Shown here: positions 64-2,423 of the stretch, in pieces | How positions within the stretch are numbered: position 1 is the first letter of the stretch | Layout of the letters: every line of letters starts with the position of its first letter | NCBI GenBank assembly: GCA_022561055.1 | Contig: JADFRY010000003.1 | Span: 35,357 to 99,356 of the forward strand | DNA: 64,000 nucleotides | From: Nanobdellota archaeon | GTDB taxonomy: Archaea; Nanobdellota; Nanobdellia; Pacearchaeales; GW2011-AR1 | Direction: 5' to 3' | The notes under the pieces: model-generated | What the model was told of the DNA's origin: nothing | Database searches by the model: none | The model's input: only the letters and a program-made list of their open reading frames with translations | Position numbers and translations under genes: made by a program

Positions 64-474
64 ATGAAAAATAAAATTTTATTTGTTTGTAGGTATAACA
101 GATTCAGAAGCGTAATTGCTGAAGCTTTATTTAAAAAATTAAATAAAAACAAAAATATTAAAGTAAAATCAGCGGGCATAATAAAAGGTTCTCCTATAGG
201 TATAAATGTAAGATATTTGGCTAAGGAATTCAAGCTAAAAATAAAAAAATATCCTCAGGGTTTAACGTCGCCTCTAATGAAATGGCAGAATGTTACTATT
301 ATAGTTGGAAATGATATTCATCCTTCTTTGTTTGATAAAAACAAAAAATTTGGAAAGCAAGTAATTATTTGGAAAATACCAGATGCTAAAACCAATAATA
401 TAAAGGAAATTATAGAAATAGCTAATTTAATTGAAAAGAAAATTAAAGAATTTGTTAATAGAATAGAAAGATGA
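64..474 (+). CDS. Low-molecular-weight protein-tyrosine phosphatase / ArsC-like phosphatase
   Basis: N-terminal P-loop CX5R(S): ILFVCRYNRFRS. Distal IPD general-acid-like motif. Size 136 aa. Stop overlaps the next start (ATGA). Confidence 0.75.
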   Translation: MKNKILFVCRYNRFRSVIAEALFKKLNKNKNIKVKSAGIIKGSPIGINVRYLAKEFKLKIKKYPQGLTSPLMKWQNVTIIVGNDIHPSLFDKNKKFGKQVIIWKIPDAKTNNIKEIIEIANLIEKKIKEFVNRIER

Positions 475-1415
475 AAAATAAAAAAGGTTTTGAGTTTGGT
501 TTTGCGTGGATATTTGCGATTCTTGCTGGAGCCGCAATTTTATTTTTGGCGGTTTTTGCTACTATAAACTTAATTAGCACAAGTAGATATGAAGTCGATA
601 CAAAGGTTGCCGCACAATTGGGAATCTTGTTAAACCCTGTTGAAACTAATCTGGAATCTGGGAAATATACTGTCATTGAATTTCCTTCCGAAACGCGTGT
701 TTTCAATAGATGCAGAGAGACAGGAAACTTTGGACAACAAAGAATAAGCACGAGTGTGAAAAGCGGAATAGGAAAAGAATTCCAAGAGCAAGGAGTCGAA
801 AGTGTTTTTTATAATAAATATATTTTTTCTTCAGGTGTCGAGCAAGGAAAGAAGCTGCATGTTTTTGTTAAGCCACTTAAAATGCCTTATAAAATAGCAG
901 ACTTGATTTTTATTTCTTCTGGTAATTATTGTTTTATTAATCCTCCAGATATTATTGAGGATGAAGTACTTGGATTAGGATTAAAGAATGTAAAAATTAG
1001 TTCTGGCGTTAGGGAGTGCCCGAAAGATAGCAAAGTCGTGTGCTTTTCCAGCAGAGGTTGCGATGTTAATGTTGACTTGCAGTCTAGAAGTGTAGAAAAA
1101 AGCGGTCAAACAGTTTATTATGAGGAAAATTCTGACGGAGAGAGCTCTTTGATTTACGGAGCGATTTTCGCCGACCCTGAAATTTATGAATGTCAAGTTA
1201 AAAGATTAATGAAAAGGACAGGGGAATTGGCTCATTTATATGCTTTGAAAAGCGAGTTTTTAACTGGCAAAGGATGTACGAGCGGATTAGCGCAAGAACT
1301 AAGAAATTATGCTAACATTGTTCAGATAGAGAGTTCATTTAATATAAGATATGTGGCGGGCTTATCTGAAGAATTAAGGAGGAGAAACAATGCGTTGTCT
1401 TGTGAATTGTTTTGA
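471..1415 (+). CDS. Cys-rich secreted/membrane protein with class III (type IV pilin-like) signal peptide
   Basis: N-terminus MKNKKG|FEFGFAWIFAILAGAAILFLAVFA: basic stretch, Gly, then about 20 hydrophobic residues. The mature part has many Cys. Confidence 0.5.
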   Translation: MKNKKGFEFGFAWIFAILAGAAILFLAVFATINLISTSRYEVDTKVAAQLGILLNPVETNLESGKYTVIEFPSETRVFNRCRETGNFGQQRISTSVKSGIGKEFQEQGVESVFYNKYIFSSGVEQGKKLHVFVKPLKMPYKIADLIFISSGNYCFINPPDIIEDEVLGLGLKNVKISSGVRECPKDSKVVCFSSRGCDVNVDLQSRSVEKSGQTVYYEENSDGESSLIYGAIFADPEIYECQVKRLMKRTGELAHLYALKSEFLTGKGCTSGLAQELRNYANIVQIESSFNIRYVAGLSEELRRRNNALSCELF

Positions 1416-1929
1416 TATGAAAAATAAGTTCTCTGGTAGAAGGGGACAGTTAAAAATTCAGCAAATGGCTTTTGTCTTAGTTACTCTCATGATATTTTTT
1501 TCCATGGTTGCCTTGTTTTATTTTTCAATTAGATATTCTACATTGAGAAGTGATGTTGAAGAGATAAGAGAGCAAGAAGTCATAGAAACAGTTAGGAAGA
1601 TGTCTGGTGCTGCTGAGTTTGCATGGAGTATTGAGGATTGTGCTTCGTGCATTGATTTGGATAAAGTTCTTGTTTTGAAAGAAAGGCAGAGTTATCAGAA
1701 TTTCTGGAGAAGAATTCCTTTTTTGCAAGTTAAAAAAATTTATCCTGTTTCTGAAGAAAAAGAATGCACGAGACAAAATTATCCTGACTGTAGCACTATA
1801 ACTATAGTAGATGAAGACACAAACATTGTTACTCATTCGGCTTTTGTGGCTTTGTGCAGGTATGAGGCAGGAGAAAATAAATGCGAACTTGGAAAAATTA
1901 TCATGGGTTTTGAGACAATCGGTAAATGA
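1390..1929 (+). CDS. Cys-rich protein with class III (type IV pilin-like) signal peptide
   Basis: ...MKNKFSGRRGQ|LKIQQMAFVLVTLMIFFSMVALFYF. Strong SD AAGGAGG lies 6-7 nt before ATG 1390. Alternative start ATG 1417 sits just after the upstream stop. Confidence 0.5.
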   Translation: MRCLVNCFDMKNKFSGRRGQLKIQQMAFVLVTLMIFFSMVALFYFSIRYSTLRSDVEEIREQEVIETVRKMSGAAEFAWSIEDCASCIDLDKVLVLKERQSYQNFWRRIPFLQVKKIYPVSEEKECTRQNYPDCSTITIVDEDTNIVTHSAFVALCRYEAGENKCELGKIIMGFETIGK

Positions 1930-2423
1930 GAAGGAAAAAAGGACAAGAGGAAATTGTAGGATTTGTTTTGATAATGGTAATTGTGGCCGTTGTTATTCTT
2001 GTTTTTTTGGGGATAACTATAAGGCGCGGCAATGTGGTTATTAGTGAGAGCAGGGAGATATACCAGTTTTTGGAGAGTGGCATGGAATACACTAGTGATT
2101 GTGAAGTAAGGTTTGCAGGTGATTATTCTTCTCTTGGGGAATTGTTTGGGGAATGCCTAGAAGGAAGCAAGTGCCTGAACGAGAAAACATCATGTGACGT
2201 GCTGAATACAACACTCAAAGGTCTGTTTGAGGCAAGTTGGCAGGTCGGCTCTGATAGGCCTATCAAAGCATATAAGTTTAACTCGATATATTCCAGTGAC
2301 TCCAGCAAAGAAGAAATAATCTCTCTCTCGAAAGGAAATTGTACCGGCAGGATAAGGGGCGCTAGTTATTTAAGCCCGGCATTTCCTGGGGTAATTGAAA
2401 GCACTCTGGAGCTGTGCTATTGA
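1926..2423 (+). CDS. Cys-rich protein with class III (type IV pilin-like) signal peptide
   Basis: MRRKKGQ|EEIVGFVLIMVIVAVVILVFLGI. The KGQ-type motif resembles that of Methanococcus-type pilins. ATGA overlap with the upstream gene. Confidence 0.55.
   Translation: MRRKKGQEEIVGFVLIMVIVAVVILVFLGITIRRGNVVISESREIYQFLESGMEYTSDCEVRFAGDYSSLGELFGECLEGSKCLNEKTSCDVLNTTLKGLFEASWQVGSDRPIKAYKFNSIYSSDSSKEEIISLSKGNCTGRIRGASYLSPAFPGVIESTLELCY

Follow-up and report, generated by a model that had tools for sequence, protein, structure and literature searches.

The Pacearchaeota and Woesearchaeota are abundant, uncultivated archaea with small genomes. How they may build their surface or make contact with other cells is the question behind this analysis of the start of a 64,000-nt stretch of DNA from a Nanobdellota archaeon of the Pacearchaeales (GenBank assembly GCA_022561055.1, contig JADFRY010000003.1), where a chain of tightly joined genes encodes a phosphatase and small Cys-rich proteins with pilin-like N-termini. 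This whole stretch, hereafter the window, corresponds to G000:C14:35357-99356, C14 being its contig in a source genome of 0.93 Mb (20 contigs, 86% complete). We asked what these proteins might form and whether the phosphatase belongs with them. A 2026 census of archaeal type IV filaments (T4F) describes DPANN pilin genes as scattered and their function as uncertain (PMC13705601). The reading we favour, with a probability of roughly 0.6, is that four proteins (the quartet U161, P2, P3 and P4) make up a minor-pilin-like heteromeric surface complex, encoded in a conserved envelope gene cluster of Pacearchaeota-type DPANN archaea in which the phosphatase is a passenger. We found no description of the quartet cluster in the literature searched. 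The genes at the start of the window are as follows:

1-63, + strand: 3' end of U161, a fourth pilin-like gene; its start lies outside the window, at G000:C14:34934, 423 nt ahead of position 1 (full gene L002:16935-17420)
64-474, + strand: predicted cytoplasmic phosphatase resembling the low-molecular-weight protein tyrosine phosphatases (LMW-PTP, hereafter PTP for this gene); PF01451 at 38 bits against a cut-off of 23.2, CX5R-S P-loop CRYNRFRS, Asp in an IPD motif
471-1415, + strand: P2, pilin-like protein of 314 aa; leader MKNKKG, mature protein starting FEFGFAW, 8 invariant Cys
1417-1929 (alternative start 1390), + strand: P3, pilin-like protein of 170 aa; leader MKNKFSGRRG, mature protein starting QLKIQQMAFVL, 6 conserved Cys
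1926-2423, + strand: P4, pilin-like protein of 165 aa; leader MRRKKG, mature protein starting QEEIVGFVLI, 6 invariant Cys

An earlier annotation made from the letters of the window alone, the sequence-only reading, had described four overlapping plus-strand open reading frames (ORFs; 64-474, 471-1415, 1390/1417-1929 and 1926-2423) as a phosphatase-led operon of three Cys-rich proteins with class III signals. All four ORFs, their overlaps and their N-terminal motifs are found where that reading placed them. ATGA overlaps can be read at 471-474 and 1926-1929, and the junction before the third gene is either a 26-nt overlap (start 1390) or a 1-nt gap (start 1417); the latter start is favoured because the P3 leader is 10-12 residues long in relatives. 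The junctions along the unit are 0, -4, +1/-26 and -4 nt. The truncated ORF that had been noticed at the window edge is U161, a 161-aa protein whose N-terminus reads MNKKG/IMSLPFGMIFSIILI (beginning MNKKG/IMSLPF) and whose TAG stop codon (61-63) abuts the PTP start codon. Ending 60 nt before U161 is U722, whose 719-aa product, a membrane protein rich in Cys (22 residues), has a signal peptide and several hydrophobic helices. Since U722 and U161 precede it, the PTP comes third in the unit and does not lead it. The window opens within a conserved gene cluster of the cell envelope, and its positions 1-2423 cover the distal part of that cluster.

Part of the support for our reading lies at the N-termini. 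The KKG/F, RRGQ/ and KKGQ/ boundaries of P2, P3 and P4 are each followed by about 20-22 hydrophobic residues, and the motif is kept in hundreds of homologs, which is not expected by chance. At position -1, the alignments hold 109 Gly and 7 Ala for P2, 92 Gly and 27 Ala for P4, 28 Gly and 2 Ala for U161, and 16 Gly and 14 Ala for P3, with no other residue in any of the four. Position -2 is Lys or Arg in almost all P2 and P4 sequences and in most of those of U161 and P3. Position +1 is Gln throughout the P3 (30/30) and P4 (119/119) families and in 17/27 U161 sequences, the window copy having Ile, while the P2 family has Phe, Ile or Leu. The first 8-10 residues of the mature proteins are nearly invariant within each family (FEFSFAW in P2, QLKIQQMAF in P3, QEE(I/M)VGF in P4), and the N-terminal consensus of U161 is [KR]G(Q)-x-x-ISFGMIFSIILI. 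The [KR][GA](Q) boundary also recurs in distant orthologs, at all six loci sampled from other orders. A24 prepilin peptidases are known for their specificity for Gly or Ala at -1, and a plain signal anchor needs positive charges and has no position limited to these two residues. The class III reading holds. The type IV pilin-like signals proposed earlier are thus borne out by their conservation in homologs, every aligned one of which has Gly or Ala at -1, and they are carried by four proteins where three had been counted.

Profile comparison of the four families (hhalign) detects similarity confined to the N-terminal 30-55 residues, with a probability of 96% for P2 against U161 and weak values for the other pairs; pairwise BLASTP among the small proteins finds none. 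Similarity limited to the N-terminus is the usual pattern among pilins. The deposited annotation conceals part of this signal: the public gene call for P4 is a 149-aa protein starting at Met17, inside the hydrophobic helix, so that the class III signal is cut off; at least one signal peptide of the quartet is thus truncated in public annotation.

The quartet is also strikingly constant. P2 has 652 database homologs, all unnamed or labelled "hypothetical" and all from Pacearchaeota/Nanoarchaeota metagenomes, and it is present in single copy in 145/151 genomes of the order and in 67 of the 68 high-quality ones; in the other orders of the class, about 42 of the 173 genomes have a weaker homolog. 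P4 has 153 homologs. Gene order was compared across 29 relatives' loci with 1.5-kb flanks, three longer loci (L010, L012 and L014) and the six loci from other orders. Among the 29, all four genes are detected in the order U161-P2-P3-P4 at 26 loci; U161 orthologs lie upstream of P2 in nearly all relatives, and a P3 ortholog directly follows P2 at every locus (29/29). U722 is found before U161 at 11/29 loci within the 1.5-kb flanks. At all six loci from other orders, a Cys-rich protein of 1000-2050 aa is followed by U161, P2, P3 and P4. This near-universal, single-copy presence within the order, a gene order that crosses orders and the proximity of an S-layer gene make the quartet a concrete and testable candidate for a core surface structure.

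Components able to process and assemble pilins are present in the genome, at some distance from the quartet. The sequence-only reading had held that the absence of any prepilin peptidase or pilus ATPase would speak against it; the genome has one A24 peptidase (PF01478, at C1:75433; gene at C1:75404-76231), T2SSE ATPases (PF00437) and T2SSF platform proteins. This refuting condition, like the one on a missing conserved G/GQ position in homologs, thus came out in favour of that reading. Its suggestion that an assembly ATPase or platform gene could lie just outside the window has to be given up, as T2SSE/T2SSF matches fall only on contigs C1, C2, C3 and C15. The ATPases define three T4F-type loci, none of them near the quartet. 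On C15, a system-1-like locus has one ATPase and two adjacent platform genes (PF00482 twice); a pilin cluster with an ATPase lies at the end of C3; and a complete-looking locus on C1 (L046, G000:C1:61000-79500) encodes the sole A24 peptidase together with a FlaI/TadA-like ATPase (759 aa), a polytopic membrane protein of 718 aa and about eight pilin-like proteins. Across the order, the peptidase is found in 148/151 genomes and T2SSF in 39/40 high-quality ones. The 718-aa membrane protein occurs in single copy in 40/40 high-quality genomes with 52-72% identity and matches no family, an unusually high conservation for an unannotated membrane protein. It has no match to the genome's own T2SSF with phmmer, and one weak cross-hit in G047 is the only hint of a platform role. 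In the relative G037, whose genome is reduced (0.5 Mb in two contigs, 93% complete; L036 and L045), the quartet is retained along with the peptidase, the 718-aa protein and just one ATPase, of 776 aa; no T2SSF was detected at E values up to 10 in this incomplete genome. This gives a hint, and a hint only, that the peptidase-linked machine alone may suffice; the 718-aa protein is not demonstrably the platform.

From these data we infer leader cleavage, complex formation, an assembling machine and a biological role along the following lines. U161, P2, P3 and P4 would each be made with a class III signal, and the single A24 peptidase of the genome probably cuts off its short basic leader, which ends in [KR][GA]. 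Each cleaved protein would then consist of a hydrophobic helix at the N-terminus and, outside the cell, a globular domain held by disulfide bonds. The four proteins would act together in fixed proportions, because they are tightly coupled in translation, single-copy, strongly conserved and fixed in gene order. Their N-terminal helices would pack into a heteromeric, minor-pilin-like complex assembled by a T4F machine encoded elsewhere. Its probable partners are the large Cys-rich surface proteins of the cluster, U722 in this genome and giant proteins in relatives, which the complex would carry or position at or through the S-layer.

The mature domains were described earlier as Cys-rich and unlike any recognised pilin, and this stands: 8 Cys are invariant in P2 and 6 in P4, 6 are conserved in P3, and no known pilin family or fold is matched. 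The conserved Cys point to disulfide-bonded extracellular domains. The AlphaFold model of P2 (mean predicted local distance difference test score, pLDDT, 91.9; predicted TM score, pTM, 0.86) has a 44-residue N-terminal helix (11-54), a beta-rich domain and a C-terminal helical bundle. That of P4 (pLDDT 92.6) has a 29-residue N-terminal helix (5-33), followed by an alpha/beta domain that closes with a sheet of four strands. The globular domains of P2 and P4 are thus confidently predicted yet lack a match among solved folds, and P2, as modelled, is a new fold. Scans of P2, P3, P4, U161 and U722 against Pfam, NCBIfam and PHROGs gave nothing useful except weak Ig-like matches (Big_13, DUF4625) in the C-terminal half of U722, which has no match in a sequence search of the PDB.

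Several observations weigh against the minor-pilin-like reading. None of P2, P3, P4 and U161 matches a curated pilin family (PF04021 Class_IIIsignal, PF07790 Pilin_N and similar). A strict FlaFind-type pattern, [KRDE][GA][ALIFQMVED][ILMVTAS]x3, was reportedly set out by Szabo et al. in 2007; scored by eye against this pattern, U161 (KGIMSL) fits, and P2 (KGFEFG), P3 (RGQLKI) and P4 (KGQEEI) fail, with charged or Gly residues at +2 to +4. Foldseek returned nothing meaningful for the P2 model against the PDB (best E value 0.085) and no match in BFVD, and nothing meaningful for the P4 model against the PDB, where the best match (E = 5e-3, TM score about 0.3) is ribosomal uS3. The P4 helix is shorter than classical pilin alpha-1, and identity of about 50% across a family is above what is usual for exposed pilins. 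No ATPase or platform gene stands beside the quartet, contig C14 having no profile match to T2SSE or T2SSF. A Pfam scan of 62 P4 homologs returned transmembrane-driven noise, including one Pilin_N match at E = 0.021.

The failed strict pattern in three of the four proteins, the missing pilin families and the lack of a pilin-like fold for the P2 and P4 models are what one would cite for ordinary, uncleaved type II signal-anchor proteins whose resemblance to prepilins is superficial. We consider this very unlikely, as a restriction to Gly or Ala at -1 in about 300 aligned sequences from four unrelated families, with Gln at +1, is not expected from the positive-inside rule alone, and the A24 peptidase is near-universal in the clade. 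The more serious competitor turns on the two genes that follow the quartet in the window:

2649-3008, - strand: winged-helix regulator of the HVO_A0114 family (PF25212, 64.7 bits), convergent with P4 and divergent from the S-layer gene
3411-5927, + strand: S-layer protein of 838 aa (PF05124, 26.6 bits) with a Sec-type signal and no visible C-terminal membrane anchor

The four proteins, cleaved or not, could stay in the membrane by their N-terminal helices, without travelling into any filament, and form a fixed anchor or pedestal comparable with ArlF/ArlG, by which the S-layer would be tethered, spaced or locally opened. The synteny with the S-layer gene and its regulator is conserved: an HVO_A0114-type gene adjoins P4 at 19/29 relatives' loci and at L010 and L012, and is nearby in L014, and an S-layer homolog follows the quartet in all three of these longer loci. 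The S-layer protein shows no membrane anchor of its own, the quartet never adjoins an ATPase, further envelope genes (including a putative archaeosortase and its substrate) lie in the same window, and a near-universal, single-copy and highly conserved cluster fits a housekeeping part of the envelope better than it fits an adhesin. Such an anchor would, however, leave the strict [KR][GA] motif and the conserved acidic or polar residues after it hard to explain; among the other orders an S-layer homolog directly follows the quartet at only 2/6 loci (L049 and L052). We therefore regard a purely membrane-bound anchor as rather improbable, although it deserves to be kept in view, and retain the minor-pilin-like complex as the favoured reading.

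By signal type, the closest relatives of the quartet, judged from sequence, are the Epd pilins (system 1, processed by EppA) of Methanococcus maripaludis, which share the short basic leader ending in KG or KA and then Gln, as well as the encoding of several different small pilin-like proteins together. The Gln at +1 is present in the P3 and P4 families, P2 having Phe, Ile or Leu, and the genome has its own system-1-like locus on C15. Unlike the Epd genes, the quartet lies on C14, outside the ATPase/platform locus, and matches neither Class_IIIsignal nor Pilin_N; its Cys-rich globular domains have no matched fold, charged residues occur at +2/+3, an S-layer gene lies alongside, and there is one peptidase per genome. 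System-1-type pilins have been reported as widespread but scattered in DPANN genomes (PMC13705601).

In function, the closest analogue would be the priming complexes formed by bacterial minor pilins with PilY1 (FimU-PilVWX) or by the pseudopilins GspH-I-J-K of the type II secretion system (T2SS), and a tip or priming role is one that we infer purely by analogy. As in these complexes, a tight operon encodes four different pilin-like proteins, one of them (here P2) about twice the size of the others, next to a large non-pilin surface protein (here U722, giving U722-U161-(PTP)-P2-P3-P4, or a giant Cys-rich protein); the quartet is likewise better conserved than typical major pilins and has a conserved acidic residue near the mature N-terminus. 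The quartet differs in being archaeal, in resembling neither GspH/I/J/K nor PilV/W/X in sequence or fold, and in that no major pilin has been assigned to it. ArlF and ArlG (FlaF/FlaG) are archaellum stator proteins that bind the S-layer (PMC4425475). They resemble the quartet in being monotopic, with a pilin-like N-terminal helix, an extracellular globular domain and a functional link to the S-layer, but the quartet has no sequence match to them and no archaellum genes nearby, and consists of four families with a conserved cleavage-type motif.

A bolder version of our reading is that Pacearchaeota and Woesearchaeota have an essentially universal envelope machine derived from pilins and made up of the quartet with its giant Cys-rich partners. 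The equally universal peptidase-linked locus (on C1 here) would assemble it, and its product would be no conventional adhesive pilus but a fixed structure spanning the S-layer, which could serve as a contact organelle or organise the S-layer. We put this forward tentatively, as a possibility that we lean against; if true, it would add a new functional class to the derivatives of type IV filaments. The proposal that the quartet serves in host attachment is speculation.

What of the phosphatase? Its identification as an LMW-PTP is confirmed by the PF01451 score and the P-loop, and among LMW-PTPs (PF01451; Wzb and ArsC-like relatives) it has the expected CX5R(S) loop and conserved Asp. It differs from these relatives in having a single Cys, which makes it no thioredoxin-coupled ArsC, in lacking a partner bacterial tyrosine kinase (BY-kinase), and in NCBIfam equivalog scores far below the cut-offs. 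An arsenate-reductase function was considered and rejected on the same grounds, the single Cys and ArsC equivalog scores far under the NCBIfam cut-offs. The second PTP paralog claimed for the window is real (31806-32174, - strand; PF01451 at 35.4 bits; 28% identity to ORF 64-474). A third LMW-PTP-like gene lies at G000:C13:55394-55789 (35% identity to ORF 64-474), which makes three such genes in a small genome.

The PTP is firmly embedded in the unit, as no nucleotide separates it from U161 and it overlaps P2 by ATGA, and is hence almost surely co-transcribed with it, as far as gene layout can tell. Four relatives, which belong to three other genera, also have a PTP ortholog within this cluster, and the C-x5-R-S P-loop and the Asp of the I-P/R/E-D motif are intact in all five in-cluster copies. 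These features could suggest a functional regulator of the surface system, for instance one that dephosphorylates a T4F component or a glycosylation factor. We judge this quite unlikely. The PTP is absent from the cluster at 25/29 close loci and from 6/6 quartet loci of other orders; where present (4/29), it sits at two different junctions, three times between U161 and P2 and once between P2 and P3, and its presence varies within genera g25 and g27. PTP homologs occur in 32/60 sampled genera of the family, and of 16 sampled genomes in which the position of P2 is known, the PTP is linked to it in one, lies on another contig in eight and was not found in seven. Its composition (GC 24.6%; GC at third codon positions, GC3, 18%) stands apart from that of its neighbours (32-42% and 25-42%, respectively), and the junctions where it can sit hold unrelated genes elsewhere, such as a 200-aa ORF in L010 and nucleotidyltransferase (NTase)/HEPN pairs and an ABC ATPase in L014. 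For these reasons we conclude, on genomic evidence, that the PTP is a lineage-specific, sporadic passenger inserted in a few lineages, and that its coupling to the pilin-like genes, which the sequence-only reading had singled out as unusual, is not a property of the system. The apparent tyrosine phosphatase-pilin link is thereby corrected to an incidental one.

Other small modules of unrelated genes are found at the quartet junctions of relatives, including NTP_transf_2 genes with HEPN partners (L014:6481-7529 and 8539-9455) and small unannotated ORFs (L049:11978-12915 and L047:8235-9128). The quartet operon seems to tolerate or attract insertions.

Downstream of the S-layer gene, the window encodes a small multi-pass membrane protein (9264-9803, - strand) and a CARDB-like protein of 682 aa that ends in a hydrophobic tail (10094-12142, - strand); together with the quartet and the S-layer gene, these two genes form an envelope-biogenesis neighbourhood at this end of the window. 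Further upstream on the contig, C14:14508-21624 holds another two pilin-like genes together with genes for giant Cys-rich proteins, among them one of 1240 aa (62 Cys) and one of 511 aa (43 Cys); about 11 kb of unrelated genes, which include a subtilase, an NTase and a HAD gene, separates these from U722. Near-identical genes for lipoprotein-like proteins of 164/165 aa (MKLGRT.KVLGASSLIGLAGCEAL...) lie at C14:26419-26916 (L002:8420-8917) and, just before U722, at C14:32149-32643 (L002:14150-14644). The pair brackets part of the approximately 11-kb block, which may be an insertion bounded by this duplication.

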